Shown here: in pieces, positions 3,087-53,854 of the stretch | Layout of the letters: each line of letters starts with the position of its first letter | How positions within the stretch are numbered: position 1 is the first letter of the stretch | Source of the DNA: Dehalococcoidia bacterium | GTDB taxonomy: Bacteria > Chloroflexota > Dehalococcoidia > Lucifugimonadales > CATQGZ01 | Length of the DNA: 64,000 bases | Direction of reading: 5' to 3' | NCBI GenBank assembly: GCA_965223945.1 | Contig: CBDCXW010000005.1 | Location: forward strand, 2,244 to 66,243 | Position numbers and translations under genes: made by a program | Notes under the pieces: model-generated | The model's database searches: none | What the model was told of the DNA's origin: nothing | What the model saw: the letters and a program-made list of their open reading frames with translations, nothing else

Positions 3087-3911
3087 GTGTTGGGGAACCC
3101 CCCGGTCAGAGTCAGAGCTTCCCAGTCGGGCCTTTTTGACGGGTTGAAGGACGTCGCACGGTCGTTCGCCAGGCCGCCGCTGTGGGTCACCCTCGGCTGG
3201 TACGACTTCATGCTGAGGTACAGACGGACGTACCTGGGACCGCTGTGGGAGGTGCTGGTCGTCGGGACGTGGGTGGTAGGCCTGGGCCTGCTGTTCGGGC
3301 AGCTGCTGGAGGAGTCGAAGGACGACTACCTGGTCTACCTCTCGGCGGGGGTGATCGTCTGGTCGTACATCTCGAGCACGCTGACGACTGGCGCGGCAGT
3401 TTTCACGTCGAACGCCAGGGCGATCTCGTCGATCAACAACCCCATGTTCACCTACGTGCTGCGCAACGTGGTGGAGCACTGGACGAAGCTGGCGGTGCAC
3501 CTGCCGATCCTGGTCGGGGTGCTGGCCTGGAGCGGCGAGTGGTCGGGCTGGCAGATGCTGTGGGCACTGCCGGGGCTGGCGATGCTGCTGGCGGCGTCGC
3601 TGTGGGCGGTGCCTCTGTTGGGGTTCGTCGGAGCACGGTACCGGGACCTGGCGCAGATGATCCGGGCGGGCATGCGGTTCCTGTTCTTCGCGACGCCGGT
3701 CTTCTGGTACGCGGACGGGCTGGGGGACCGCGATTTCCTGGCGCACCTGAACCCCTTCACGCACTACCTGGAGCTCGTCCGGGCGCCGCTGACGGGCGAG
3801 ACGGCGACGCTCGTGTCGTGGGCGGTGGTGGCGTCGATCAACGCGGCGGGCCTGGCGGCGTTCGCGGTGACGTACAGCCCCCTGCGGCGGCGGCTGACCC
3901 TGTGGATATGA
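3087..3911 (+). CDS. ABC-2 type polysaccharide export permease (Wzm/TagG/KpsM-like)
   Basis: 274-aa polytopic membrane ORF. The N-terminal segment WYDFMLRYRRTYLGPLWEVL is typical of ABC-2 exporters. Its stop overlaps the start of the downstream ATPase gene (ATGA). The GTG start at 3087 is uncertain. Confidence 0.8.
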   Translation: MLGNPPVRVRASQSGLFDGLKDVARSFARPPLWVTLGWYDFMLRYRRTYLGPLWEVLVVGTWVVGLGLLFGQLLEESKDDYLVYLSAGVIVWSYISSTLTTGAAVFTSNARAISSINNPMFTYVLRNVVEHWTKLAVHLPILVGVLAWSGEWSGWQMLWALPGLAMLLAASLWAVPLLGFVGARYRDLAQMIRAGMRFLFFATPVFWYADGLGDRDFLAHLNPFTHYLELVRAPLTGETATLVSWAVVASINAAGLAAFAVTYSPLRRRLTLWI

Positions 3912-4699
3912 GCATGGACAAAGACTTCGCGATCCGGTTGCGGGACCTGACTATGGAGCTGCCCACGTACGGGCGGGTGAAGCACCCGTCGTGGAACGGC
4001 CTCGGGGCGACGCAGGCGGGAGTGGGCGGACGGCTGAACTTCTCCGACGGCCGGGCGACTGTGACGGCGCTGGACGACGTGAGCGTCGAGATCGCCCGCC
4101 GGGAGCGGGTCGGCTTGATCGGTCTGAACGGCGCGGGGAAGAGCACGATGCTGCGGGTGATGGCGGGGATATACTACCCGACTCGCGGGACGGCGGAGTC
4201 GCGCGGCAGGGTGTCGACGCTGTTCTCGGAGTCGCTGGGCCTGAAGCCGGAGGCGACGGGCATCGAGAACATCATGCTGTCGGGCGTGTCGCTGGGGCTG
4301 ACGCACGGGCGGGTGAAGCAGATGATCCCTGAGATCGTGGAGTTCACGGAGCTCGGGGAGTACGTCCACATGCCGATGCGGACCTACTCGACGGGGATGC
4401 GGGCGCGGCTGGCGTTTGCGGTGGCGACGTCGATCAGGCCGGAGATACTGCTGATAGACGAGATCATCGGCGCGGGGGACATGCGCTTCCAGGCGAAGGT
4501 GAAGGAGCGGCTGGAGGACTTCATGGGGTCGGCGAACACGCTGGTCGTGGCCTCGCAGTCGGAGCAGGTGATCAGGGAGTTCTGCGACCGGGCGATACTG
4601 CTGGAGCGGGGCCGGGTGCGGATGTCGGGCGGCGTCGAGGAGGTGCTGGCGGAGCACCTGGGGAAGCACGGCAGGCGGCGGGGAGCGGGCCGACCGTGA
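3908..4699 (+). CDS. polysaccharide ABC exporter ATP-binding protein (Wzt/TagH/KpsT-like), short form without C-terminal carbohydrate-binding domain
   Basis: Walker A GLNGAGKST, signature YSTGMRARLAFA, Walker B ILLIDE. 263 aa from the ATG at 3908, which overlaps the permease stop. The longer 3182 ORF start lies in another frame over the permease and is rejected. Confidence 0.85.
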   Translation: MSMDKDFAIRLRDLTMELPTYGRVKHPSWNGLGATQAGVGGRLNFSDGRATVTALDDVSVEIARRERVGLIGLNGAGKSTMLRVMAGIYYPTRGTAESRGRVSTLFSESLGLKPEATGIENIMLSGVSLGLTHGRVKQMIPEIVEFTELGEYVHMPMRTYSTGMRARLAFAVATSIRPEILLIDEIIGAGDMRFQAKVKERLEDFMGSANTLVVASQSEQVIREFCDRAILLERGRVRMSGGVEEVLAEHLGKHGRRRGAGRP

Positions 4700-6807
4700 C
4701 GCACCAGCACTCGACGGAGGAAGGCGGGGCCGGGCTCGTGAGGGACCGGGTGTCGCAGCTTCAGGAGAGGATCGAAGGCCTCGAGCGCCAGGTCGAGCTG
4801 GACCGGATGGCACTGGCGCGTCTCCGCAAGAGCCTCGACAGCCGTGCGGGGGAGGTCCGGGTGCTGAGGCACCGCCTCCAGGCGACGCGTTCGAGCGCCT
4901 CGTTCCTCGCGGGCTCGGCGCTGGTGCAGGCCGCGAAGCAGCCGCACACCCTGTGGAAGCTTCCCTTCCAACTCCTCCGGCTGTACCGGTCGAGATCGAG
5001 GCCGACGGCGGGAACCGGCGACGGGAGCGACCCGAACGACCGGTACAAGGACCTTCCCCCAGAGCTCGCCCTGGACCCCTCGGAGTTCGTCAGCCACCCT
5101 CCCCTGCCGATACCCGACGCAAAGGGCAATGGCCCAACCGTGGCGGCCATCCTGGACACGTTCACTGAGTACTCGCTGCGCTATGAGGCGGACCTGCTGC
5201 TTGTGTCGCGGAACGACTGGCGAGCCGAGATGGAGAAGGCGCAGCCGGCGCTCCTGCTCGTAGAGTCGGCCTTCAGCGGCAATAACCGGGAATGGCGGCA
5301 CCTGATCGTCGATTATGAGACCGTCGGGGACAATCCGCTGCGGGAGCTGATCCTGTTCTGCCGCTCCGCGGGGATTCCGACCGTGTTCTGGAACAAGGAA
5401 GACCCGGCGCACTTCGACAACTTCATCGGGGCCGCCAGGGAGTTCGACCTCGTCTTTACGTCAGACGCCGACTGCGTTCCGGTATACAGGGAGGCTCTGG
5501 GACACGAACGGGTATATGTCCTACCATTCGCCGCGCAGCCGCGGATCCACAATCCGTCGAGTGAGGAGGGCTGGCCAAGCTATCCGGTGTGCTTTGCCGG
5601 AAGCTGGGTGGAATACAGATACCCCGACCGCGCCGAGTCGCTCCGTCACCTGCTCGACCCTGCCGTCCCACTCGGCCTGCACATCTTCGACCGCAACCTC
5701 ACGCGACGGGACCTGGGGCCGCACTATCGCTTTCCCGACCAGTATAGGGAGGCGATCAAGGGAACCCTCACCTACGAGGAGATGCTGACGGTCTACCGGT
5801 GCTATGACGTGCTCCTGAACGTCAACACCGTAAGCGACTCCCCAACGATGTTCGCCCGCCGAGTCTTCGAAAGCCTGGCGTGCGGGACGCCCGTCATCTC
5901 ATCAGAGTCGGTCGCCATAAGCCGGATGCTCGGAGAGCACGTCAGGATATCCCGTAGCAGGGAGGACACCGAACGCCACCTCCTGGACCTGATGGGAGAT
6001 GAGGAAGCCCGTGTCCGGGAGGGTCACCTGGCCTACCGCCACGTACATGAAAACCACACCTACCGGCTACGCATAGACGAGGTCTTCCGCAGGACCGGCC
6101 TCGAGCCGCCCGCCTCAGAGCAGCCGTCGGTGAGCGTCCTCATGCCTACCAAGCGCCCTGAGAACGTGGCACGGTGCCTCGACAACTTCAAGAAGCAGAC
6201 GTACCCGGCCAAGGATCTCATCCTCATTCTGAACAATGCAGATTTCGACCTCGACGCTATAAGGAAGGATGTCGAGCTCATTCCCAACGTGCAGGTGCTC
6301 CACATGGACGGACGCACGACTCTGGGACACTGCCTAAACCGCGGCGTCGAAGCGGCGTCTGGCGAATACATCGCGAAGATGGACGACGACGACCACTATG
6401 GGGAGCGGTACCTCTCGGACAGCGTCCTCGCGGCCTCGTTCTCGGACGCGGAGGTCGTCGGCAAGGGGGCCTTCTTCATGTACTTCGAAGAGTCCGATAC
6501 CACTGCCCTGACGGAAGTGACACGGGAGCACACGTTCACTTCTTTTGTAACGGGCGGCACTCTGTTGATACGAGCCGAAGTAGCAAGGGAGAACCCTTTC
6601 GACTCCATTTCGCTAAGGGAGGACACGAACTTCCTTCACGCGGCAGCACAGGCCGGCTGCAAGATCTACTCCGCGGATAGGTTCAACTTCGTACGAGTGC
6701 GGACGCGACGGCTATCAAATCATGCAGACCAGACCCCGGACGCCGGATTCCTGAAAAAGTGCCGAAACCGGACACAGGGCCTCGACCTCGAGCGTGTCCT
6801 GATATGA
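4696..6807 (+). CDS. multidomain glycosyltransferase: N-terminal coiled coil, CgeB-like (GT1-type) domain, C-terminal GT2 domain
   Basis: 703 aa, GTG start overlapping the upstream stop (GTGA). Coiled coil RVSQLQERIEGLERQVELDRMALARLRK. The central region (FWNKEDP..FDLVFTSDADCV..NVNTV.DSPTMFARRVFESLACGTPVIS) resembles CgeB/DUF3880-type glycosyltransferases. The C-terminal SVSVLMPTKRPENV...AKMDDDDHYGERY is a GT2 fold with a DxD motif. Confidence 0.75.
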   Translation: MTHQHSTEEGGAGLVRDRVSQLQERIEGLERQVELDRMALARLRKSLDSRAGEVRVLRHRLQATRSSASFLAGSALVQAAKQPHTLWKLPFQLLRLYRSRSRPTAGTGDGSDPNDRYKDLPPELALDPSEFVSHPPLPIPDAKGNGPTVAAILDTFTEYSLRYEADLLLVSRNDWRAEMEKAQPALLLVESAFSGNNREWRHLIVDYETVGDNPLRELILFCRSAGIPTVFWNKEDPAHFDNFIGAAREFDLVFTSDADCVPVYREALGHERVYVLPFAAQPRIHNPSSEEGWPSYPVCFAGSWVEYRYPDRAESLRHLLDPAVPLGLHIFDRNLTRRDLGPHYRFPDQYREAIKGTLTYEEMLTVYRCYDVLLNVNTVSDSPTMFARRVFESLACGTPVISSESVAISRMLGEHVRISRSREDTERHLLDLMGDEEARVREGHLAYRHVHENHTYRLRIDEVFRRTGLEPPASEQPSVSVLMPTKRPENVARCLDNFKKQTYPAKDLILILNNADFDLDAIRKDVELIPNVQVLHMDGRTTLGHCLNRGVEAASGEYIAKMDDDDHYGERYLSDSVLAASFSDAEVVGKGAFFMYFEESDTTALTEVTREHTFTSFVTGGTLLIRAEVARENPFDSISLREDTNFLHAAAQAGCKIYSADRFNFVRVRTRRLSNHADQTPDAGFLKKCRNRTQGLDLERVLI

Positions 6808-37411: not shown

Positions 37412-38677
37412 TGTATAGACCGGGGACATAGGTTACACATGTTCGGAGACATGGGTTACACCATTAGGCATGGTAATTCTGTTCAGGAGGATGCCCATGC
37501 CATGGAGGGTGGAAACTGTCATGTCTCAACGCAAAGAGTTCGTCGCTCTGGCGCGGTCCGAGGGAGTGATCATGAGCGAACTGTGTTTGCGCAGTGGGAT
37601 CAGCCGCAAGACTGGCTACAAGTGGCTGAGACGATACCTTGAAGGCGGAGAGCAGCGTCTGGATGATCTCCCGAAGCGCCCTCATCACTCCCCGAACCGG
37701 ACGAGCGACGACATGGAGCAGCTCGTCGTAGACCTTCGCCGGGAGCATCCCACTAAGGGAGGACACGTGCTGGCCAGGATACTCAAGGATCGTGGACACA
37801 ACAGTGTGCCGTCCAAGAGCACGATCACGGCCATCCTCAGACGACATCAACTTATCGAGCCATCTGAGAGTCTCAAGCACAAGCCGTATAAGCGCTTCGA
37901 GCACGAGCGGCCCAACCAGCTGTGGCAGATGGACTTCAAGGGGCATATCCCTGTCGTCAGCGGTGGACGTTGCCACCCGCTGACGGTCCTGGACGACCAT
38001 TCGAGGTTCTCCCTGGGTGTGAGGGCTTGTGCAGACGAGAGGACTCAGACCGTCCATGACCATCTTACGTCCATCTTCAGCCACTACGGCATGCCCAATA
38101 CGATACTGGTTGACAACGGCTCTCCCTGGGGCAGCGACGTTGACCACCCCTTCACCCCACTGACAGTCTGGCTGGTCCAACTGGGAGTCAGAGTGGTCCA
38201 CAGTAGGCCATACCACCCCCAGACCCTAGGCAAGCTCGAGCGCTTCCACAGGTCCCTCAAGACTGAGCTGCTCCAGGGAAGCAGATACACCGACCTGTCC
38301 CACTGCCAGAGCAGCTTCGATGGATGGCGAGACTTTTACAACCTCCAGCGTCCTCATCACGCCCTGGACCTCAATACGCCTGCCAGCCGATACACCGTCA
38401 GCCCTCGGCCTTTCCCGGAGACGCTTCCGACCGTCGACTACGACACTGACGACCAGGTACGCTCTGTAGATGTCAACGGCCGAATATCCTTCCTGGGCAG
38501 ATCATTCCCCGTCGGTAAAGCCTTCAGAGGCAAGAGGGTCGCTCTAAGGCCCACACCCACTGACGGCACATGGAAGGTCTTTTTCTCCGTCCAGTCCATC
38601 GCTACCATAGATCTCAATCAATAGAATGTGTAACCCATGTCCCCGAACAACTGTTACCCATCTCTCCGGTCTGTACA
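37412..38677 (+). mobile_element. IS481-family insertion sequence, 1266 bp, 50-bp imperfect terminal inverted repeats, 5-bp target duplication CCCGT
   Basis: IRL TGTATAGACCGGGGACATAGGTTACA... and IRR (reverse complement) TGTACAGACCGGAGAGATGGGTAACA... match at 42/50 positions. Direct repeats CCCGT lie at 37407-37411 and 38678-38682. Contains a single DDE transposase ORF. Confidence 0.9.
37497..38624 (+). CDS. IS481-family transposase (HTH + DDE integrase core)
   Basis: N-terminal HTH (SQRKEFVALARSEGVIMSELCLRSGISRKTGYKWLRRY). DDE core blocks WQMDFKG, ILVDNGSPW and YHPQTLGKLERFHRSLKTE. Start uncertain (37470, 37491 or 37497). Confidence 0.9.
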   Translation: MPWRVETVMSQRKEFVALARSEGVIMSELCLRSGISRKTGYKWLRRYLEGGEQRLDDLPKRPHHSPNRTSDDMEQLVVDLRREHPTKGGHVLARILKDRGHNSVPSKSTITAILRRHQLIEPSESLKHKPYKRFEHERPNQLWQMDFKGHIPVVSGGRCHPLTVLDDHSRFSLGVRACADERTQTVHDHLTSIFSHYGMPNTILVDNGSPWGSDVDHPFTPLTVWLVQLGVRVVHSRPYHPQTLGKLERFHRSLKTELLQGSRYTDLSHCQSSFDGWRDFYNLQRPHHALDLNTPASRYTVSPRPFPETLPTVDYDTDDQVRSVDVNGRISFLGRSFPVGKAFRGKRVALRPTPTDGTWKVFFSVQSIATIDLNQ

Positions 38678-41767: not shown

Positions 41768-43315
41768 TTACCCAAACGTCCTTTTTAGATACTGCAAGTC
41801 TAGCTCGGGATAGAGAGGAAAACCGGCCAGGAGATCGGAAACGCGCCCGCGCGCGGCAGCGATGACACGGGCGTCGGTCACGTGGCGCGCCTTGCTGGGC
41901 TGCCCGGCCCGCTTGCCCTTGCTAATGACGCTGGGTGTAGTCGCCGAGAGTACGGACGCCATAATTGACGCTATTTCGGCCATCTCGCTGGCGCCCATGC
42001 CCCGACTGGTCAGAGCGGGCGTGCCGAAGCGGAGGCCGGACGTGTACCACGCGCCGTTGGGGTCAAAGGGAATGCTGTTCCGGTTGAGGGTGACGTTGGC
42101 CTCGCGCACCGCCGACTCGGCCTGCCGACCAGTTAGGCCGTACGTGCCGATGTTCGCAAGAATCAGGTGGTTGTCGGTACCGCCCGTCAGGATGTCCATG
42201 CTCTCGTTGATGCACGCCGCTGCCAGAACCGAAGCGTTCTCCACGATAGTGCTGGCGTAGGCCTTGAATTCTTCCCCAGCAGCTTCGGTAAAGGCAACGG
42301 CCTTGGCCACCATGACATGTGGCATGGGGCCACCGAGCACCATTGGACAGCCCTTGTCCACGTATTCGCCGAACTCACCGGTCGAGAGGACCATGCCGCC
42401 GCGCGGACCACGTAAGGTCTTGTGGGTCGTCGTCGTGACGACGTGGGCATGCGCCACCGGATCGTAGGGACCGGTGAACCCCTCGACCTTGCCGGCGACC
42501 AGTCCGGCGAAGTGAGCCATGTCGACCATGAGGACGGCCCCGACCTCGTCCGCGATTTCGCGGAAGATGCGGAAGTCGATCCTTCGCGGGTAGGCGCTGT
42601 ATCCGGCCAAGAGGATCAGCGGCCGGAACGCCTTGGCCTGCCGACGAACCGCATCGTAGTCAATCAGCTTCGTCTCCCTGTCCACATCGTACGACTGTGC
42701 CTCGAACATGGTGGCCGATACGTTATGGCGGTATCCGTGCGACAGGTGGCCGCCCGAGTAGTAGCCCATTCCGAGCATTCTCTGACTTCCGAGTGCATGT
42801 CGAAGCTCAGCCCATTCGGCATCCGACAGCTTGTACGGGTCGGTCTGCCCCACGCTGTCCATGAAGGGTGAGTGCACCCTTGCGGCGAGGATCGCCCAAT
42901 AGGCCACCAAGTTCGCGTCCGCTCCAGAGTGCGGCTGGACGTAGGCGTGCTCTGCACCGAACAACTGCCTCGCCAGGTCAACGGCACGCCCCTCAACAGC
43001 ATCCACGTTCTCGCATCCAGCGTAGAACCGGTGGTAGGGGTACCCTTCGGCATACTTGTCGGTGAATAGGTTCCCCATGGCCAACTGCACGGCAAGGGAG
43101 GAATAGTTCTCCGACGCAATCATCTTGAGGCTGGTCGACTGGTCGACCAGCTCGTCGACGATAGCCGCCGAGATATCCGGCGAGACGGAGCAGATGTGTT
43201 CAAGGGCCGCGAGGTAGGCGACGAACCCGGTGTTCAGGTCTCTACCAGCGGCAACCGCTTCGGAGATATAGTCGGCGAGAGCCGAGGTAGTGGGCATGGG
43301 TGATATCGAGAGCAT
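41768..43315 (-). CDS. glyA: serine hydroxymethyltransferase, long form with N-terminal extension and internal insertions
   Basis: MIASENYSS, YAEGYPYHRFYAGCENVD, VQPHSGADANL and the PLP-lysine motif TTTTHKTLRGPRGG. Start uncertain (43315 or 43297). Confidence 0.9.
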   Translation of the reverse strand: MLSISPMPTTSALADYISEAVAAGRDLNTGFVAYLAALEHICSVSPDISAAIVDELVDQSTSLKMIASENYSSLAVQLAMGNLFTDKYAEGYPYHRFYAGCENVDAVEGRAVDLARQLFGAEHAYVQPHSGADANLVAYWAILAARVHSPFMDSVGQTDPYKLSDAEWAELRHALGSQRMLGMGYYSGGHLSHGYRHNVSATMFEAQSYDVDRETKLIDYDAVRRQAKAFRPLILLAGYSAYPRRIDFRIFREIADEVGAVLMVDMAHFAGLVAGKVEGFTGPYDPVAHAHVVTTTTHKTLRGPRGGMVLSTGEFGEYVDKGCPMVLGGPMPHVMVAKAVAFTEAAGEEFKAYASTIVENASVLAAACINESMDILTGGTDNHLILANIGTYGLTGRQAESAVREANVTLNRNSIPFDPNGAWYTSGLRFGTPALTSRGMGASEMAEIASIMASVLSATTPSVISKGKRAGQPSKARHVTDARVIAAARGRVSDLLAGFPLYPELDLQYLKRTFG

Positions 43316-43467
43316 CAATGTCTGTGAGTAGTCTATCGGCGGCTCTCGCGGGATGTCAACGGCCGTATCTGTCCTCCGCGCCGACGCGCACGCCGCAATT
43401 GGCGAAGTAGCCAAATCATGAACTCCCGGAGAAACGCTCCCGTGCCACCTGCCGAAGCCTTAGCCCT

Positions 43468-44199: not shown

Positions 44200-44384
44200 A
44201 CTCGTTGATCTCGTCCCTCGCACTTACCTTGCTCCTCTGCGTCCCATTTACCCCTCCTGAAGGCACCTGCGGCTCAGACGGAGGGGGACCCAGCATGCGC
44301 TTTTTACGCCCGTCAAAGCGGGCTCTGTAACAAGAATTTACCACATCCGCTCTACGTCAGTAACAAACTAGCGGCAGAGTCTAG

Positions 44385-45581
44385 GGATGCTCTGAATAAG
44401 TCCCGGTGGTTTGCGGGATAGTAACATAGGGCCAAGGCCTGAAGACGTGGGAGGCGAGGCAATGAACCAGCCGACGTTTGCGGACTTGGACTACGAGAGC
44501 AAGAAGCGAAAGACTCGCAGGGAGAAGTTCCTTGAGCGCATGGATGGACTGATCCCGTGGGAAGAGTTGGAAGAGCGCATCCGACCGTTCTATCCCAATG
44601 CTGGCCGAGGTCGGCGTCCCTACGAGTTGTCGGCGATGCTTCGCATACACTGCGTGCAGTTGTTCTACAACCTGAGCGACCCTGGGATGGAGGACATGCT
44701 CTACGAGGTCGAATCGGTGAGGCGGTTCGTAGGGCTGAGACTGCCTGGGCCGCTGCCGGACGAGACGACGATTCTGAACTTCCGCCACCTGCTGGAAGAG
44801 CATGCGTTAGGCTCGGGTCTGTTCGAGGAGATCAACCGCTATCTGGAGTCCAAGGGTCTCCGTCTTCAGGAGGGGACGATAGTGGACGCGAGCATCATAG
44901 CGGCGCCCTCATCGACGAAGAATCGGGCTAAAGAGCGCGACCCCGAGATGCACCAGACGAAGAAGGGTAACGAGTGGCACTTCGGGATGAAGGTGCACAT
45001 CGGTGTGGACTCGCAGACGGGAGTGGTGCACAGCATGACCACGACATCTGCGAACGTGCATGACCTGACTGAGTTGCCCCGGTTGCTGCACGGTGGGGAG
45101 TCTCAGGTGTGGGGAGATGCTGGGTATCAGGGAGTTGACAAGAGGCCGGGCAACCGGGGCTTGGATGTGGAGTGGCAGGTCGCGATGAGGCCCGGCCAGC
45201 GTCGGAAGCTGGAGCCTGAGAGTCCTGAGGCGGTGTCGGAGAAGCGCAAAGCGTCGGTCAGAGCTAAGGTGGAGCATCCGTTCCTGTACATCAAGCGGCA
45301 CTTCGGCTACGCCAAGGTCCGCTACAGGGGACTGTCCAAGAACACGCAGCGGCTGATGACGCTGCTGGGGTTTGCCAACTTGATGAGGGCCGAACAGTAC
45401 CTGGCGGCGTGAAACCTTGTATAAGTGCGCCCAAAATCAGGCCTAACGGCGGCGAAACGCCCTGTCAGGGCCGGTTGTAGGCCGAGATTAACCCCCACCA
45501 CGGCGCCATAAGGCAATTCAACGCCCCCAAAACCACTCCGGTCAACTCGGCCCAGCCTGAAGCCGATTGTTCAGAGCATCC
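44385..45581 (+). mobile_element. IS5-family insertion sequence, 1197 bp, flanked by 4-bp CTAG target duplication
   Basis: Terminal inverted repeats GGATGCTCTGAATAAG / GGATGCTCTGAACAAT (reverse complement) have 12 perfect terminal bp. CTAG lies at 44381-44384 and 45582-45585. Size and YTAR-type target fit the IS5 group. Confidence 0.85.
44462..45412 (+). CDS. IS5-family DDE transposase
   Basis: N-terminal MNQPTFADLDYESKKRKTRREKFLERMDGLIPW and GRRPYELSAMLRIHCVQLFYNLSDPGMED are hallmark IS5 blocks. DDE core has DASII.AP, GDAGYQG and KVEHPFLYIKRHFGY.KVRYRGL.KN. Confidence 0.9.
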   Translation: MNQPTFADLDYESKKRKTRREKFLERMDGLIPWEELEERIRPFYPNAGRGRRPYELSAMLRIHCVQLFYNLSDPGMEDMLYEVESVRRFVGLRLPGPLPDETTILNFRHLLEEHALGSGLFEEINRYLESKGLRLQEGTIVDASIIAAPSSTKNRAKERDPEMHQTKKGNEWHFGMKVHIGVDSQTGVVHSMTTTSANVHDLTELPRLLHGGESQVWGDAGYQGVDKRPGNRGLDVEWQVAMRPGQRRKLEPESPEAVSEKRKASVRAKVEHPFLYIKRHFGYAKVRYRGLSKNTQRLMTLLGFANLMRAEQYLAA

Positions 45582-45646
45582 CTAGATGATGGCCAGGCCC
45601 TTCCAGGGCGGTCGAATCTTGCATTATTCAGGGAGGAGGCCTAACG

Positions 45647-45775
45647 ATGAGCGACACTCCCAAGACACCTGAGGACGTGAAGAGGCTTGTCCGTGACAAC
45701 GACATCACGATCGTCGACCTCAAGTTCACCGATCTCCCGGGCACCTTCCAGCACTTCTCGATCCACACAGGGCAC
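45647..45775 (+). pseudogene. 5' fragment (about 42 codons) of a type I glutamine synthetase gene
   Basis: MSDTPKTPEDVKRLVRDNDITIVDLKFTDLPGTFQHFSI matches the GS-I N-terminal beta-grasp start and has a strong RBS (GGGAGGAGG). Homology ends abruptly at about 45775, and the ORF then runs into unrelated AT-richer sequence to the stop at 45829. Confidence 0.7.
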
Positions 45776-45825
45776 CCTCCCTTTTCCGTCCGCAATTATC
45801 GGCCGTGGCGGGCATCAAAAGAAGA

Positions 45826-45854
45826 TTGACACAACTTTCACAAACTGCTATATT
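45826..45854 (+). promoter_or_regulatory. near-consensus sigma70-type promoter (TTGACA - 17 nt - TATATT)
   Basis: TTGACA at 45826-45831, exactly 17-nt spacer, TATATT at 45849-45854. Located in an AT-richer patch about 90 nt upstream of the 45943 ORF. Confidence 0.5.
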
Positions 45855-45942
45855 CCGCTTTCACGCCCGAGGCAACCGGTAGGGTTTTAGTCACTCTCCG
45901 AGTCCCGCAGGCGTCCGCCTCACCAGCGCTTGGATTACCCCT

Positions 45943-46779
45943 ATGTTGGAGCGAGACCGCGAAGCTATTGACTATGTCCTTCACGAAGGCCGGGAGAACG
46001 ACGTAAAGTTCATCCGTCTCTGGTTCACGGACATTCTCGGGAATCTCAAGGGCTTCGCGATAACGATCGAGGAGCTGGAGAGCGCCATGACAAGGGGCAT
46101 GGGGTTCGACGGCTCGACCATAGAGGGGTTCGCACGCTCGTCCGAGCGCGACCTCTACGCCCTTCCGGACCCGAACACCTTCGCCATTCTTCCGTGGCGT
46201 CCCCGCACCAACGCGGTCGCGAGGATGTTCTGCGACATAGTCACGCCGGACGACGAACCCTTCGAGGGAGACCCTAGATTCGTTCTCAGGCAGAACCTGG
46301 AGCGTGCCGCCGCGCTCGGCTACACCAACTACGTTGGGCCGGAGATCGAGTACTTCTACTTCAAGGACTCCACCGATACGCAGAGCCTCGACCAGGGAGG
46401 CTACTTCGATCAGGACTCCAGCGACTCGTCGACCGATCTCAGGCGCCAGACCGTCCTGACTCTTGAAGAGCTTGGCATACCCGTCGAGTCCAGCCACCAC
46501 GAGGTGGCCCCGAGCCAGCACGAGATCGACCTGCCGCCGCCACCGGCCGAGTCGAACGTGTGCGACCTGCCCGAGAGCGAGCGCGACTCTCTGGGGATCG
46601 ACCGCCTACCAGAGAACCTCTGGGAGGCCATCAAGGTGACGGAGAACAGCGAGCTCGTCCATCGGGCTCTGGGTGAAGAAGTCGCCCAGAGCTTCATCGA
46701 GAACAAGAAGATCGAGTGGGACCGGTCCCACTCGGAGGTCAGCGAATTCGAGAAGGAGAGATATATCCCGGTACTGTAG
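45943..46779 (+). CDS. glutamine synthetase type I-like ORF with in-frame deletion of the catalytic core (probable pseudogene or non-catalytic remnant)
   Basis: Colinear with GS-I from the N-terminus through SSHHEVAPSQHEIDL. It then jumps directly to the C-terminal LPENLWEAIKV...IENKKIEWDRSHSEVSEFEKERY. About 180 residues are missing, including the KPxxGxxGSGMH ATP-binding and NSYKRL blocks. 278 aa versus about 445-470 aa expected. Confidence 0.75.
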   Translation: MLERDREAIDYVLHEGRENDVKFIRLWFTDILGNLKGFAITIEELESAMTRGMGFDGSTIEGFARSSERDLYALPDPNTFAILPWRPRTNAVARMFCDIVTPDDEPFEGDPRFVLRQNLERAAALGYTNYVGPEIEYFYFKDSTDTQSLDQGGYFDQDSSDSSTDLRRQTVLTLEELGIPVESSHHEVAPSQHEIDLPPPPAESNVCDLPESERDSLGIDRLPENLWEAIKVTENSELVHRALGEEVAQSFIENKKIEWDRSHSEVSEFEKERYIPVL

Positions 46780-46797
46780 ACACCGGCCTCTTCCGAC

Positions 46798-49700
46798 ATG
46801 AGCACCCATTTCAGTCTCGAAAGCATGCGGAATATCGAGGAGCGCGGGCTTTACGACCCGCGCTTCGAGCATGACGCCTGCGGTGTCGGCCTCGTCGCGA
46901 ACATCAAGGGCGTCAGGTCCCACGACATCGTCAAGAAGGGCATCGAAGCGCTCGTCAACCTGGGCCATCGGGGCGCTTGCGGCTCGGACCCCGAGACTGG
47001 TGACGGCGCGGGAATCCTCCTACAGATGCCCCACGAATTCTTCGCTCAGCAGGCCGAGTCTGCCGGGATCGATCTGCCTGGCTCCGGTCGATACGGCGTC
47101 GGCATGGTCTTCCTTCCACAGAGCTCCGAGGAGCGCCGCCGTTGCGAGGAGATCGTGGAGGAGGTCGTCGCGCGGGAGGGCCAGACTCTCTTAGGGTGGC
47201 GCGACGTCCCCGTGTCTCCCGGCGCAATCGGACGGCTCTCCGCCGAAGTCATGCCGGTGATACGGCAGTTCTTCGTGCTGAAGAGAGCGGACATCGCCGA
47301 CGAGTCCGCTTTCGAGCTGAAGCTCTACGTCATCAGGAAGTCCATAGAGGCCGCCGTACAGGCGGAGGACGGCGTCGACCTAGCCGACCATTTCTATGTC
47401 GCGAGCCTCTCGTCCAACAAGATCGTGTACAAAGGCCTCATCATGGCCTCGCAGATCGAGGACTTCTACCACGATCTGACCGACGGCTCGTTCAAGACCT
47501 CGTTCGCCCTCGTGCACTCCAGATTCAGCACCAACACACTCGGCTCGTGGCGGCTCGCGCACCCGTACAGGTTCATCATCCACAACGGCGAGATCAACAC
47601 GCTGCGTGGCAACGTCAACTGGATGACCTCCCGCCAGTCGATTTTCTCGTCGGAGCGACTGGGTGACGACGTGAAGAAGCTGCTTCCAGTCATTACCCCG
47701 GGCCAGAGCGATACCGCATCTCTGGACAACGCCCTAGAGCTTCTCCTGGCCACCGGTCGCTCCCTGCCGCACGCCATGATGATGCTCATCCCGGAGGTCT
47801 GGGGCGACCATGTCCCGATGAGCCAGGCCAAGCAGGACTTCTACCGTTACCACTCATCCCTTATGGAACCGTGGGACGGGCCCGCGCTTGTCATCGGTAC
47901 GGACGGCAGGAAGGTCTGCGCGGTGCTCGACAGGAACGGCCTCCGCCCCTGCCGGTACCTGGTCACGACGGACGATCTGCTCGTCATGGCCTCGGAGACA
48001 GGGGTCCTCGACATCCCCCCGGAGAACGTGCTGTCCAAGGAGCGCATATACCCGGGTCGCATGTTCCTGCTCGATGGGGACGAGGGCCGCCTGATAGGAG
48101 ACGAAGAGATCAAGGCCGGGCTCTCCGCCCGGGAGCCCTATGGCCGCTGGCTGGAGCAGAACACGGTCGACTTGGATCGGCTGCCCGACCCTTCGCGCGT
48201 GCCCGGTCCAGAATTCGACTCCCTGCCGCAGCGGCAGGCCGCATTCGGCTACACGCTCGAAGACCTTCGCGTGCTCATGGAGCCAATGGCCATCGAGGGC
48301 TCCGAGCCCGTAGGCTCCATGGGGAACGACACACCACTCGCGGTCCTGTCGGACCAGTCCCCGCTCCTCTTCAGCTACTTCAAGCAGCTGTTCGCCCAGG
48401 TCAGCAATCCCCCTCTGGACGCGATCCGGGAGGAGCTTGTCACCTCGCTGGACGTGACGGTCGGAGCGGAGCAGAACCTGTTCGACGAGACACCCGAGCA
48501 CTGCCGCCAGCTCAGGGTAAGACGCCCCGTCCTAAGCAACCGCCAGCTGGAGCAGATCAAGCGGCTCGACACGAGGGGGATTCGCACCAAGACCATCTCC
48601 ACGCTCTTCGAGCCCGGCCTAGGGGCGGGCTCGCTCCTGCGGGCCATGGACCGGGTGTGCGGCGATGCCTCCGCCGCCATCGAGGACGGCTACTCCATAC
48701 TCGTGCTGTCTGACCGGGGCGTCGACCGGCGTCACGCCCCGATCCCAAGCCTCCTCGCGACTGCGGGCGTTCACCACCACCTGATCCGTGAAGGCGTCAG
48801 AACCAGCGCCGGTCTGATCGTAGAGTCGGGCGAGCCGCGAGACGTTTCCCAGCTCGCCCTCCTCATAGGCTACGGTGCCTCCGCCATAAACCCGTACCTC
48901 GCCTACGAGACGCTGGCCGACATGCAGGGGAAGGACGCGTTCATCGAGCCGGTGAGAGGAGACGACGCCGAAGAACACTACGTGAAAGCCCTGCACAAGG
49001 GAATCCTCAAAATAATGTCCAAGATGGGCATCTCGACCATTGAGAGCTACAGGGGGGGCCAGATATTCGAGGCGGTCGGGCTCAACCAGGAGTTCGTGGA
49101 CCGCTACTTCACCTGGACGCCGTCGAGGGTCGAAGGCATAGGCATCGCCGAGGTCGAGGAGGAGTCGAGGCGGCGACACGCACACGCGTACCTGGACCCC
49201 AGGGTCGACGGCAACAGGGAGCTCCGGGCCGGCGGAGCCTACCAGTGGCGGCGCGACGGCGAGTACCACATGTGGAACCCGTACACGATTGCGAAGCTCC
49301 AGCACTCGGTCAGGTCGGAAGACTTCGCGACGTTCGAGCAGTTCGCGAGCCACATCGACAGCCATAGCCGGCAGCTGTGCACCATCCGCGGCCTGCTGGA
49401 TTTCAAGGAGGCGGGCGCGCCGGTCCCGCTGGACGAGGTGGAGCCCGCCTCCGAAATCGTCAAGCGGTTCTCCAGCGGAGCGGTATCCCTGGGATCGATC
49501 AGCCGTGAGGCGCACGAGACCATGGCCATCGCCGCGAACCGGATATCGGCCAGGAGCAACACGGGCGAGGGAGGTGAGGACTACCACCGATACTCGCTGG
49601 ACCCCAACGGCGACTCGCGGAACAGCGCGATCAAGCAGGTTGCCTCCGGCCGCTTCGGCGTAACCATGCAGTACCTGACCAACGCGAAGGACCTCCAGAT

Positions 49701-51369
49701 AAAGATGGCCCAGGGGTCCAAGCCGGGCGAGGGCGGACAGATTCCAGGCCAAAAGGTCGACGAATACATCGGGTGGGTGCGCAACTCGACGCCGGGCGTG
49801 GAGCTCATCTCCCCTCCTCCCCACCACGACATCTACTCCATCGAGGACCTAGCCCAGCTCATTTACGATCTCAAGAACTCGAACCCCGCGGCACGGGTAC
49901 ACGTCAAGCTAGTGGCCGAGGTAGGCGTGGGCACGATAGCCGCCGGGGTGTCCAAAGCACACGCCGATGTCGTCCTTATCAGCGGCGACAGCGGCGGCAC
50001 GGGAGCATCGCCGGAGTCGTCCATTAAGAATGCGGGCCTGCCCTGGGAGCTTGGCGTCGCCGAAACCCAGCAGGTCCTCGTGGCCAACGATCTCCGGGGA
50101 CGGATCGTCGTGCAGACCGACGGACAGCTCAAGACCGGCAGGGACGTGGCTATCGCGTGCCTGCTGGGGGCGGAGGAGTTCGGCTTCGCCACGGCTCCGC
50201 TCATCTCGATGGGCTGCATCATGCTGAGGAAGTGCCACCTGAACACCTGCTCGGTGGGCATAGCGACGCAGGACCCGGAGCTGCGGAAGCAGTTCGCGGG
50301 CAAGCCAGAGCACGTCATCAACTACTTCTTCTTCGTTGCCGAGCAGATGCGGGCCATCATGGCCAGGCTCGGCTTCCGCACCGCGAACGAGATGGTCGGG
50401 CGCGTCGACATGCTGGACGGCAACAAGGCCATCGAGCACTGGAAGGCGCGGAACCTCGATTTATCCGGGCTGCTTCACATGCCGGAGGCCCACTCAGGAG
50501 TCGCTACCTATTGCAGCGAGGAGCAGGACCACGCCCTCGACAAGGCCCTCGACCACACCCTCATCGAGTTGTCCAGGGACGCCTTGGAGAACGGCTCCCC
50601 CGTCTCCATCGAACTGCCGATTCGCAACGCCAACCGCACTGTCGGCACCATGCTCAGCCACGAGGTGACTAAGCGGTATCCCGCCGGACTGCCGGAGGAC
50701 ACCATCCGCATAAGCTTCACCGGCTCCGCGGGCCAGAGCTTCGGCGCCTTCGCCGCGCCCGGCATCTCGATGACCGTTGAGGGCGACTCCAACGACTACT
50801 TCTGCAAGGGCCTGTCGGGCGGCAAGATCGTCATCACCCCTCCCAGGGGCTCCACCTTCGTACCCGAAGAGAACATCATCGTGGGCAACGTGGTCCTCTA
50901 CGGCGCCACCTCCGGCAAGGCCTTCATTCGCGGAATAGCCGGCGAGCGCTTCTGCGTACGCAACAGCGGGGCGGAGGCCGTCGTAGAGGGCGTGGGCGAC
51001 CATGGCTGCGAGTACATGACCCGGGGCCGGGTGGTCGTGCTGGGCCCGACCGGCCGGAACTTCGCGGCCGGCATGAGCGGTGGAGAGGCCTACGTGCTCG
51101 ACGAGAAGGGCCGGTTCCGCGACCTCTGCAACACCGACATGGTCGATCTGGAGCCGGTTGTCGAAGAGAGCGACCGCGCCGCGCTCCGGCGCATGATCCA
51201 AGACCACCTTCGCTACACCGGCAGCGCGACCGCACGCCGCGTCATCGACGACTGGGACCAGATGCTGCCCAGATTCGTCAAGGTGATGCCGATCGCCTAC
51301 AAGCGGGCGCTCCGAGAGAGGGCCGAGGCCAACGCGGCCGTTCCGGCGGGCGGAGTGCCTCATGGGTAA
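46798..51369 (+). CDS. gltB: glutamate synthase large subunit
   Basis: 1523 aa. N-terminal amidotransferase domain [16 protein letters not shown] (Cys-1 after processing), central and FMN domains ([19 protein letters not shown]), and a C-terminal GXGXG beta-helix domain. Confidence 0.95.
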
Positions 51370-52819
51370 GCCAACGGGCTTCATGGAGAAGGGCCGGAGA
51401 AACCCTGACCGCGTGCCAGTCGCGGAACGCGTCGGGAATTACAGGGAGTTCTACAGAAGCTGGACGGAGCAGCAGGCCCGCGAACAGGGCGCCCGCTGCA
51501 TGAACTGCGCCGTACCCTTCTGTCACCAGGGCTGCCCGCTCGGCAACCTCATCCCAGACTGGAACGACCTCGTATATCGCGGGCAGTGGCAGGACGCGCT
51601 CGAAGCTCTCCACGCGACCAACAATTTCCCGGAGTTCACCGGAAGGATCTGTCCCGCGCCGTGCGAGGCCGCCTGCGTCCTCGCCATCAACCAGGACCCC
51701 GTGACCATCGAGCACATCGAGAAAGCGATCTCGGACCGGGGCTGGGAGAACGGCTGGATCGTGCCCCGGCCCCCTGAGAGGCGGACAGGCAAGAGGGTCG
51801 CCCTCGTCGGCTCGGGCCCGGCCGGACTCGCCGCCGCTCAGCAGCTGAACCGCGCCGGACATAACGTGACCGTATTCGAGCGCTCGGAGCGAGTCGGCGG
51901 CCTCCTCAGTCTCGGCATACCCGACTTCAAGCTCGAAAAGCATGTAGTCCAGCGGCGCGTCGACCAGATGTCGGAGGAGGGCGTGGAGTTCAAGACGGGA
52001 GTCCACGTCGGGCGGACCATGCCCGTCAGCGATCTCACAAGCGAGTTCGACGCAGTATGCCTCACGGGCGGCAGCACCGTGCCGCGCGACCTCCACGTCC
52101 CGAACCGCGATCTCGGCGGCATACACTTCGCCATGGACTATCTAACCCAGCAGAACAGGCTGATGGCCGGCGACCACATCCCGCCGGAGGAGCGCATCAC
52201 CGCCGAGGGCAAGCGGGTCCTCATTCTAGGTGGCGGAGACACCGGGGCCGACTGCCTCGGCACAGCCCACAGGCAGGGCGCCGAGGTCGTGCACCAGCTG
52301 GAGATACTGCCGGAGCCTCCGACGGAGCGGACAGCCGACAACCCCTGGCCCGAATGGCCGAAGATTCTCATGTCGTCGGCAGCCCACGAGGAGGGCGGCA
52401 TACGCGACTACAACATCCTGACCAAGCACTTCTCCGGCATCGACGGCGAGGTCAGAAAGCTCCACGGCGTTCGCCTGGAGTGGGGCCCGCCCGATCAGTC
52501 GGGCCGTCCCTCCATGAACGAGGTGGCTAGAAGCGAGTTTGAGATCGAGACAGAGCTCGTCCTGCTAGCCATGGGCTTCCTGCGCCCGGAGCACGACGGC
52601 ATGCTGGCAGACCTCGGCGTCGACCTCGACCGGAGAGGCAACGTCGCCACCGACGAGAACAAGATGAGCAGCGTCCCCAGCGTCTTCGCAGCCGGAGACA
52701 TGGCCAGAGGACAGTCCCTCGTGGTCTGGGCCCTCGCCGAGGGCCGGGAGGCCGCCAGAGGCATCGACCAGTACCTCATGGCAGGCACCAGCCTGCCGAG
52801 AGTGCTCACCAGCGCATAG
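51362..52819 (+). CDS. gltD: glutamate synthase small subunit (NAD(P)H-dependent)
   Basis: MGKPTGFME start, [17 protein letters not shown] Fe-S motif, [23 protein letters not shown]-binding motifs. Overlaps the gltB stop by 8 nt. Confidence 0.95.
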
Positions 52820-52846
52820 CAGAGCCCTAAGAGACGGAGGAGCAGC

Positions 52847-53854
52847 ATGGCAAAGCACAAGATATCCGTTATCGCCCCGACTGATCCCAACCTGACTCTC
52901 GTGGAGGCTGGCCTTGCGGGCCTCGACTACGAGCTGGACGTCAATGTGTGCTCCAGCATCGGAGAGACCATCGAGGCCGTCAAGGGAGCGGACGTCATCA
53001 TCCACATGCTGCTCCCCATGCCGACAGAGGTCGTCGAGGCAATCGACACGGCCCGCGCCATCGTCACAGGCAGCCACGGGTTCGACCGCATAGACTACGA
53101 GACCGCCACCAAGAAGCGGATAATGGTCGTGAACAGCGCGGGCTTCTGCACCGAGGAGGTCTCGAACCACACGATCATGTTCCTCCTGGCCTGCGCCAAG
53201 AGCCTCGTCCAGCTCGACAAGAAGGTGCGAGCGGGCGGATGGAGGACGGACGTCATGCCGGTGCTGCCCCCCATAGACGGGCAGACCCTGGGAATAGTCG
53301 GCCTCGGCAACATCGGCCGAGCCACGGCCCGTAAGGCCCAGGCTTTCGGCCTCCACGTCATCTCGTACGACCCCTACGTCCCAAGCTGGATTCCGAAGGA
53401 GTACCGGGTCGAGATGGTCGCCAGTCTCGATGAGCTCGCTTCGAGGTCGGACTACGTGTCGATACTGGTGCCGCTCAACGGCGAGACGAAGGGATTGATC
53501 GGCGAGTCGTTCTTCGAGGCCATGAAGCCCACGGCCTTCTTCATAAACACCTGCAGAGGACCGACGGTCGACGAGGCCGCGCTGATCAAGACCCTCAAGG
53601 AAGACCGCATCGCCGGCGCCGGCCTGGATGTATTCGAGCAGGAGCCCCCGGCGCGGGACAATCCCCTGTTCGAGCTGGACAATGTGATCCTGACGCCGCA
53701 CTCGGCCGGGACTTCGACCGCCTCCGCTCCGGCGTCGCTCATCAGAGTCGGCGAGGAGACGGCGCGCATCCTTAAGGGCACCTGGCCGATGTCACTAGTC
53801 AACCCCGAGGTGCGGTCCAGCATCGAGGCCCGTCCGTCCGCCGTGACTGCGTAG
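52847..53854 (+). CDS. D-isomer-specific 2-hydroxyacid dehydrogenase family protein
   Basis: NAD-binding LGIVGLGNIGRATARKAQAFGLHVISYDPY. Catalytic region FINTCRGPTVDE...AGLDVFEQEP...NVILTPHSAG. Confidence 0.85.
   Translation: MAKHKISVIAPTDPNLTLVEAGLAGLDYELDVNVCSSIGETIEAVKGADVIIHMLLPMPTEVVEAIDTARAIVTGSHGFDRIDYETATKKRIMVVNSAGFCTEEVSNHTIMFLLACAKSLVQLDKKVRAGGWRTDVMPVLPPIDGQTLGIVGLGNIGRATARKAQAFGLHVISYDPYVPSWIPKEYRVEMVASLDELASRSDYVSILVPLNGETKGLIGESFFEAMKPTAFFINTCRGPTVDEAALIKTLKEDRIAGAGLDVFEQEPPARDNPLFELDNVILTPHSAGTSTASAPASLIRVGEETARILKGTWPMSLVNPEVRSSIEARPSAVTA

Follow-up and report, generated by a model that had tools for sequence, protein, structure and literature searches.

We analysed a 64,000-nt stretch of DNA from a Dehalococcoidia bacterium (assembly GCA_965223945.1, contig CBDCXW010000005.1, positions 2,244 to 66,243 of the forward strand), hereafter called the window, in which two open reading frames (ORFs) related to glutamine synthetase (GS) stand directly upstream of gltB and gltD, the genes for the two subunits of glutamate synthase (GOGAT). 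We conclude, with a probability of about 0.8, that both ORFs are young and non-functional remnants of a conserved cluster, amtB-GS1-GS2-gltB-gltD; that is, they are recent pseudogenes, and we refer to them as remnant 1 (from GS1) and remnant 2 (from GS2). A preliminary description, made from the letters of the window alone, had already proposed that two GS genes decayed here by recent pseudogenization. This proposal is borne out by intact copies at the syntenic site in relatives, by scars shared among strains, by a GS2 allele of the same species that lacks the deletion (on contig L110), and by the loss of GS-type constraint.

The features on which the argument turns are the following. Coordinates without a contig number are those of the window, and L-numbers denote the contigs to which it was compared.

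45631-45639, + strand: Shine-Dalgarno sequence of the former GS1 gene, read from the sequence
45647-45829, + strand: remnant 1, a 60-codon ORF made up of the former GS1 N-terminus and an out-of-context tail
45764-45823, + strand: GS1 deletion scar, with residual sequence from the intergenic or terminator region between GS1 and GS2
45824-45856, + strand: ancestral GS2 promoter, with -35 TTGACA (45826-45831), a 17-nt spacer and a TG-extended -10 TATATT (45849-45854)
45943-46779, + strand: remnant 2, 278 residues, a GSI-alpha-type GS gene with a 501-nt in-frame internal deletion
46798-51369, + strand: gltB, glutamate synthase large subunit, intact, with GATase_2, Glu_syn_central, Glu_synthase and GXGXG domains at full length
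51362-52819, + strand: gltD, glutamate synthase small subunit, intact, with Fer4_20 and Pyr_redox_2 domains

The order of events that we propose is as follows. A single deletion would first have taken out the part of GS1 between codon 40 or so and the terminator, with amtB also gone. GS2 would next have evolved faster than in relatives, until a 501-nt deletion, with microhomology of 1-2 nt at its edges, inactivated it and remained in frame by chance. The deleted allele now prevails in the species, with at least one strain keeping an undeleted, apparently frameshifted gene. The strong promoter and the open frame are inherited rather than newly selected. Remnant 2 would probably still form the leader of a gltBD operon transcript, and may even be translated, its peptide having neither an enzymatic nor a structural role. 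The comparisons below demonstrate the homology, the synteny, the edges of the deletion, its distribution in the population, the loss of GS-type constraint and the integrity of gltBD; the co-transcription with gltBD, the absence of any function of the peptide and the sequence of events are what we deduce from them.

The ancestral cluster in related Dehalococcoidia

In contigs L004 and L005, the gene order runs from rnc (on the - strand) through amtB, GS1 (466-479 residues), GS2 (445 residues) and gltB to gltD, with amtB to gltD in the same orientation. On the 3' side of gltD follow a 2-hydroxyacid dehydrogenase, an alcohol dehydrogenase and a luciferase-like oxidoreductase (the last two on the - strand), and the window has the same genes at this place. 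Contig L006 agrees with them in the core order as far as gltD, and has different genes beyond it. Matches to GS1 and GS2 also lie on contigs of shared sizes in many relatives, which indicates that the tandem is common in the group. The window therefore resembles the amtB-glnA-glnA-gltBD cluster of these relatives in its gene order, its GS2 promoter element and its downstream genes. It differs in that amtB is missing between rnc and remnant 1, GS1 is reduced to about 39 codons, GS2 is internally deleted, and an insertion sequence (IS) lies upstream. Since intact GS1 and GS2 genes occupy the syntenic site in the closest intact relatives, both ORFs of the window are deletion remnants. DNA-level homology to L004 spans both scars, and no other GS-like sequence occurs within the 64-kb window.

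The GS1-derived part of remnant 1 comprises its first 39 or so codons (45647-45763, ending in QHFSI). These residues, TPEDVKRLVRDNDITIVDLKFTDLPGTFQHFSI, can be aligned to the N-termini of the 466-479-residue GS1 proteins of L004-L006, and the DNA at 45665-45764 is 75% identical (blastn) to positions 8284-8383 of L004, the 5' end of GS1. The Pfam profile Gln-synt_N (PF03951) matches remnant 1 weakly, over profile positions 2-23 (E = 0.0016). Thus, the N-terminal GS stub reported in the preliminary description is real, its length being 39-40 codons rather than about 42, and the strong ribosome-binding site noted in front of it is present as well (GGGAGGAGG, 7 nt 5' of the ATG). Indels in the tail cause the length of the ORF to differ between strains (53, 60, 64 and 78 residues). 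By comparison with L004 and L006, the loss in GS1 amounts to some 1.3-1.46 kb, from about codon 40 into the terminator region; the scar at 45764-45823 does not align to L004, and it aligns in part to the sequence just past the GS1 stop codon of L006.

For remnant 2, the nearest intact homologue is P0003, a 445-residue protein encoded on L004 and L005. The two are 80% identical over the retained residues and 87% identical over the N-terminal part. At the DNA level (blastn), 45939-46534 corresponds to L004 9997-10592 and 46536-47000 to L004 11095-11592, which leaves a gap of 501 nt in GS2. Further upstream, 45824-45856 corresponds to a 33-nt block that lies 130 nt 5' of GS2 in L004.

A different arrangement is found on L007, where a 341-residue type II (eukaryote-like) GS at 8858-9883 stands directly 5' of the GSI-alpha gene in place of GS1, and gltBD do not follow downstream. 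We considered whether this gene was another truncated GS1, and ruled this out because it is a type II enzyme.

What remnant 2 retains and what it has lost

Remnant 2 is colinear with its 445-residue homologues as far as ...HHEVAPSQHEIDL, skips 167 alignment columns, and resumes at PPPAESN. The deletion thus comprises 501 nt, or 167 codons, with its junction between 46533 and 46534 (L197|P198). The whole of the Gln-synt_N profile is matched (positions 1-82 of 82, E = 1.8e-27), while of the 344 positions of Gln-synt_C (PF00120) only 2-105 and a short C-terminal stretch are matched (E = 2.5e-36). Profiles and alignment agree with the earlier account of an open 278-codon frame that is colinear with GS-I at both ends. 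That account was also correct that the loss is in frame, although its estimate of about 180 residues was too high.

The motifs GSGMHTHQS, NQWVNSYKRLVP and RRIEYRAPD all fall inside the deleted block, and they are present in the intact homologues as well as in the undeleted L110 allele. Conversely, remnant 2 keeps the metal-ligand motifs PEIEYF and HHE..QHE. The statement that the metal-, ATP- and glutamate-binding loops are missing is therefore accurate for the three lost motifs, but not for these metal ligands. As for the adenylylation site, also listed as lost, we assume that an adenylylation loop is not to be expected in a GSI-alpha-type protein in the first place.

The closest entries in the PDB are 8s59, 8tfb and 4lnf, and the equivalent of residues 202-363 or so of 8s59 is missing. 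Remnant 2 is a direct descendant of the type I-alpha enzymes (GlnA of Bacillus subtilis, 4lnf; archaeal GlnA, 8s59 and 8tfb), from which it has kept the full beta-grasp N-domain, some 95 residues at the start of the catalytic domain, and about 80 residues at the C-terminal end. Unlike these enzymes, it should be unable to bind ATP or glutamate, or to form the active-site barrel. With 167 residues and their active-site motifs absent, that is, with neither a complete catalytic domain nor the GSGMHxHxS, NSYKRLVP and RxExRxPD motifs of a functional type I GS, remnant 2 is not a functional GS, as had been proposed. An AlphaFold2 model built on a 44-sequence alignment has a mean pLDDT (predicted local distance difference test score) of 53 and a pTM (predicted template modelling score) of 0.38, with residues 117-202 below a pLDDT of 50, which suggests that the retained core does not fold.

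An undeleted allele and the age of the deletion

A search with the C-terminal half of the protein recovered a 123-residue fragment on L110, a contig of the same species as the window. L110 carries the remnant 1 scar and the same promoter, together with an undeleted GS2 of 1330 nt. This gene contains one extra T (CAG CTT T AAG), which produces a +1 frameshift near codon 275. Some 7 kb of adjacent coding sequence contains no other frameshift, and the one in GS2 is probably real.

L110 provides the edges of the deletion within the species itself: ...GAC CTG | CGC CAC ... TAC GAG | CCG CCG CCG GCC, with a microhomology of only 1-2 nt. Given so short a microhomology, the in-frame outcome is either the one case in three expected by chance, or the product of filtering by effects on gltBD. 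A 7-nt direct repeat (GACCTGC) was considered as the cause of an in-frame deletion; it occurs in L006 and is absent from the undeleted allele of the same species, so we discarded it.

The 591 nt of L110 that precede the junction are 100% identical to those of the deleted alleles L003 and L104-L108, while other deleted alleles differ at 5-9 sites. Thus, the GS2 deletion is young and polymorphic. The sequence comparisons also indicate frequent homologous recombination in the population, so that the locus appears as a recombination mosaic. Taken with the identity of L110 to some deleted alleles, this mosaic implies that most of the polymorphism flanking the junction predates the deletion or was exchanged with undeleted alleles.

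Diversity along the locus is itself uneven. Relative to L012 and L003, between-strain diversity is low (about 0.4-1%) at 45583-46100 and 52201-53000, beside stretches of 3-6%, and L013/L014 differ from L010-L012 at about 80 sites in gltBD and at 1 in remnant 2. From the trough at 45583-46100 we had considered that the GS2 deletion might be older than the GS1 deletion. This order was rejected, since L110 has the GS1 scar without the GS2 deletion, and other troughs exist.

Distribution among assemblies

It is important to establish that the junction in the window is not peculiar to one assembly. Another 26 contigs, which come from at least 14 metagenomes and from long-read and short-read assemblies alike, show both scars; among them are one contig of 3.33 Mb, several of 0.4-0.8 Mb, and the SPAdes/Illumina scaffolds L015, L100-L103 and L109. 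All 26 carry remnant 1, the promoter, remnant 2 and gltB, followed by gltD where the contig reaches that far. Differences between contigs in gltBD are at most about 4%. These contigs were found through an identical or near-identical protein, a form of sampling that broken alleles would escape. A search for split fragments of such alleles, made with the C-terminal half as query, recovered only short proteins, of which the L110 fragment alone came from this species. The exact deletion junction had no match in scans of GTDB genomes and JGI metagenomes.

The deletion might in principle be an artefact of assembly or sequencing, the real gene being intact, and some long-read contigs of the species do carry single-base indel errors. 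Yet 27 contigs, which represent at least 14 samples and different assemblers and read types, share the identical junction, the Illumina scaffolds among them. The recurrence of the same junctions excludes an assembly artefact, to which we assign next to no probability.

The indels in question disrupt gltB, gltD or the next gene in L003, L014 and L099, and are probably assembly errors. In L003 they consist of a +1/-1 pair in gltD at window-equivalent positions 52179 and 52508, and a -1 at 52875.

Nor do the short forms constitute a conserved family of short proteins, the other finding that would have told against a deletion. Judging from their sequences, all short variants belong to one species-level cluster. 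There are 27 of them, 275-284 residues long and 94-100% identical to the window protein, and they form one 26-member cluster at 90% identity plus one singleton; within the 26-member cluster, the 15 listed members are 97-100% identical. Among the 120 best homologues, the only short cluster representatives are two proteins of 278 and 279 residues, both at least 94% identical to the window protein, and all others listed have 428-485 residues. The nearest GTDB species representatives, named Dehalococcoidia or SAR202, are at most 81% identical to the remnant protein (this comparison is one of identity, and did not extend to gene length or to the deleted segment). Since the short forms are confined to one species and at least 94% identical, they are not a conserved family of their own.

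Loss of constraint on remnant 2

If remnant 2 no longer serves as a GS, its substitutions should ignore the conservation of the enzyme. Of 117 outgroups, 116 lie farther from remnant 2 than from P0003, its intact sister (0.265 versus 0.217). Of the 21 amino-acid changes seen within the species, 11 affect conserved columns (at least 90% conservation in 118 intact GS proteins), and such columns make up 53% of the total. By comparison, only 9.4% of the changes between close pairs of intact GS proteins fall in conserved columns (Fisher's exact test, p = 1e-6, for pairs that are not independent of one another). The conserved residues affected include R65H, I99M, D110N, Y129N (in the window), G152E and Y262S (in the window). 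Among the closest strains, remnant 2 shows 6 nonsynonymous to 3 synonymous (N:S) differences, against 10:36 in the flanking genes (p = 0.013). Judging from these three measures, none of which hinges on when the deletion arose, GS-specific constraint on remnant 2 is lost.

The undeleted allele tells a similar story. After correction of the frameshift, the L110 protein departs from conserved columns at 13 positions, compared with a mean of 5.5 in intact enzymes, and 7 of these lie in the segment later deleted; the relaxation therefore seems to predate the deletion. Two changes in length also occur within remnant 2. In L008 and L009, a 21-nt tandem duplication repeats HEVAPSQ (codons 186-192 or thereabouts) inside the conserved motif HHEVAPSQHE, and the stretch of CCG proline codons that the deletion left at the junction (codons 198-201) is 3 or 4 prolines long across loci, through repeat slippage.

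Several observations weigh against recent pseudogenization. When all 26 contigs are pooled, N:S is 13:18 in remnant 2 and 150:310 in the flanks (gltB, gltD and the dehydrogenase), a difference that is not significant (p = 0.33), and the pooled ratio lies far below the neutral expectation of 3.3-3.9. We infer that the low pooled ratio stems from polymorphism older than the deletion in a recombining population, together with sampling by identical protein. Every allele seen has an open frame, with the caveat on sampling given above. In L003, two insertions of +4 and +2 nt, 31 nt apart, restore the frame, as would be expected under selection for read-through; however, gltD and the gene after it also carry single-base indels on this contig, and the pair may be assembly noise. 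Finally, the frameshift in L110 could be an assembly error, since single-base indels occur in other long-read contigs. As to the open frame, only 2-4% of random substitutions create a stop codon. The youth of the deletion suffices to account for the open frame.

A within-species dN/dS (omega) of about 0.2-0.3 was at one stage considered as a sign of selection on remnant 2. We dropped it, since the undeleted L110 allele has a 5' haplotype identical to that of some deleted alleles, and the locus is a recombination mosaic.

The same data bear on the suggestion, made in the preliminary description, that the 278-residue protein is a retained non-catalytic fragment. We considered it as a regulatory or decoy subunit, with either a functional GS or some nitrogen regulator as its binding partner. 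TnrA and GlnR of Bacillus are examples of regulators to which GSI-alpha enzymes bind, and such a role would agree with a frame that is open in 27 distinct variants, with the retention of the promoter, and with a pooled N:S that does not exceed that of neighbouring genes. However, the deletion-carrying contigs hold no intact GS at the locus that could act as a partner (26 of 26), the sole undeleted GS2 appears frameshifted, and no GS1 orthologue is found on the long contigs of the species. The allele is limited to one species and younger than the flanking polymorphism, too young for an open frame to mean anything. Moreover, replacements strike invariant residues at the rate expected by chance (R65H, D110N, Y129N and Y262S, for example), a 7-residue duplication interrupts the HHEVAPSQHE motif, and residues 117-202 are unfolded in the AlphaFold2 prediction. 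The suggestion thus finds no support at this locus, and we regard such a subunit as very unlikely.

The promoter and the glutamate synthase genes

The consensus-like promoter reported upstream of remnant 2 is present as a sigma-70-type element, TTGACA-17-TATATT, at 45826-45854. It matches the consensus hexamers at 11 of 12 positions, has the TG extension, and is the only such site in 2.8 kb. The block 45824-45856 is identical to L004 9842-9874 at 32 of 33 positions. Its 27-nt core (45826-45852, TTGACACAACTTTCACAAACTGCTATA) is identical in L004-L006 and L017 (L006 9852-9878; L017 9850-9876), even though the flanking intergenic DNA is unalignable and synonymous sites are saturated. Many of L018-L064 carry a degenerate form, TTGACAC-N4-TT(T)CACAA-N5-TATATT, which precedes GS2 in a metagenome-assembled genome (MAG) of Thermoflexus as well as in many Dehalococcoidia. 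The distance from the motif to the GS2 start is mostly about 150 nt, with a range of about 90-240 nt. The conserved positions in the spacer (TGACA and TCACA, 11 nt apart) suggest a candidate binding site for a regulator, and the element is the ancestral, and probably regulated, promoter of GS2. A scan of the whole window against Rfam detected no RNA family.

Downstream, gltB and gltD have complete domain sets and are intact, as had been described, and pairwise omega for gltB within the species is 0.07-0.16, which points to purifying selection on GOGAT. From the stop codon of remnant 2 to the start of gltB there are 18 nt in the window (46780-46797); L096 appears alike, and the other contigs checked have 20 nt, with an extra AG. 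We find no obvious Shine-Dalgarno sequence in front of gltB, and the promoter scan detected no other promoter-like site between the GS2 promoter and gltB. From this layout it would appear that gltBD are transcribed from the former GS2 promoter, and a dependence of gltBD on that promoter would explain its preservation.

This arrangement raises the question of whether the frame of remnant 2, its peptide being useless, is nonetheless kept open by selection in cis, either because read-through avoids transcriptional polarity or because it permits translational coupling to gltB. The short spacer, the missing Shine-Dalgarno sequence and the single promoter all speak in its favour. So do the length changes seen, every one of which preserves the frame (501 nt, 21 nt, 3 nt, and the +4/+2 pair in L003), and the fact that the amino-acid sequence is unprotected at GS-conserved sites. 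On the other hand, one in three deletions is in frame by chance alone, out-of-frame alleles would have been missed in a search by protein identity, and the L003 insertions may be assembly errors, given the gltD indels on the same contig. In addition, the frameshifted gene of L110 stops translation about 500 nt before gltB, yet its gltBD look intact, and the spacer between GS2 and gltB ranges from 79 to 465 nt in relatives, which indicates that tight coupling is not ancestral. We therefore consider selection on the frame in cis unlikely, and retain chance inheritance of the open frame as part of the pseudogene reading.

Other glutamine synthetases, comparable cases and implications

Whether the species has another GS determines what the loss means. 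None of the long contigs of the species, that of 3.33 Mb among them, carries a GS1 orthologue (at least 71% identity), in a search that did not cover GSII and GSIII. It is conceivable, although we hold this only tentatively and think it doubtful, that the species has no GS at all and is a natural glutamine auxotroph, which takes up glutamine supplied by a host or community and converts it to glutamate by GOGAT. In such a glutamine-importing setting, the deletion allele may stand at high frequency because the loss of GS is tolerated or even favoured. A weaker version holds that the in-frame remnant may be kept translated since expression of gltBD needs it.

The only precedent that we found in the literature is Blochmannia vafer, an ant endosymbiont in which glnA is reported to have been lost by deletion in one lineage and kept in close relatives (Williams and Wernegreen 2010, PMC3017870). 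The authors interpret the loss as a relaxed need for ammonia assimilation (PMC3017870). On that account, the two cases are alike in that a GS gene was deleted in one lineage and retained by its close relatives. They differ in setting and in extent: Blochmannia vafer is described there as having a tiny, obligately intracellular genome from which the gene is wholly gone, whereas the genome considered here is larger and IS-rich (one contig alone spans 3.33 Mb), two paralogues have been lost, recognizable remnants are left behind, an undeleted allele still exists, and GOGAT has been kept.

Gene decay is in itself routine, and what we describe is an ordinary process caught early, while the undeleted allele still segregates. 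Because that allele is found in the same species, it becomes possible to date the loss in a population that is alive today. There is also a practical consequence. Automatic annotation miscalls remnant 2 a "glutamine synthetase", as JGI already does, and metabolic reconstructions of MAGs would then credit the organism with an ammonium assimilation that this locus cannot provide. The wider interest lies in the loss of amtB and of both adjacent GS genes while GOGAT is kept, which raises the question of the source of glutamine. If the genome indeed has no other GS, the lineage would depend on external glutamine, a metabolic dependency in an uncultured lineage of Dehalococcoidia.

Insertion sequences and neighbouring genes

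The region upstream of remnant 1 contains a mobile element.

44385-45581, + strand: IS5-family element of 1197 bp, with a transposase ORF at 44411-45412 (Pfam DDE_Tnp_1, E = 6e-28, and DUF772)

Its terminal inverted repeats are 16 bp (16-20 nt) long, GGATGCTCTGAA(T/C)AA, and it is flanked by a target duplication, CTAG, at 44381-44384 and 45582-45585; the empty site, GAGTCTAGATGATGG, is preserved in L001. The element lies 65 nt 5' of the start codon of remnant 1. It is particular to this strain, and none of the other 26 contigs examined from the species has it. In two other strains, an IS630-like element sits between rnc and remnant 1 (L008 5918-9619; L110 918-2068), and in L008 a nested IS21 (istA/istB) interrupts it. 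The region that once lay upstream of GS1 has thus served repeatedly as a landing site for IS elements, in three strains, which fits a region that is no longer functional. Elsewhere in the window, IS110-family and IS481-family transposase genes occur at 11311-12480 and 37470-38624, respectively, so that together with the IS5 element there are three IS in 64 kb.

The serine hydroxymethyltransferase gene that lies between the S30AE gene and rnc also differs between groups of strains. It occupies 41768-43414 on the - strand of the window, and 3659-4903 on the + strand of L008. The two versions encode proteins of 509-548 and 414 residues that are 44% identical, on opposite strands, while the sequences that flank them are 96-99% identical. 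From the sequences compared, this looks like the replacement of a gene within one species.

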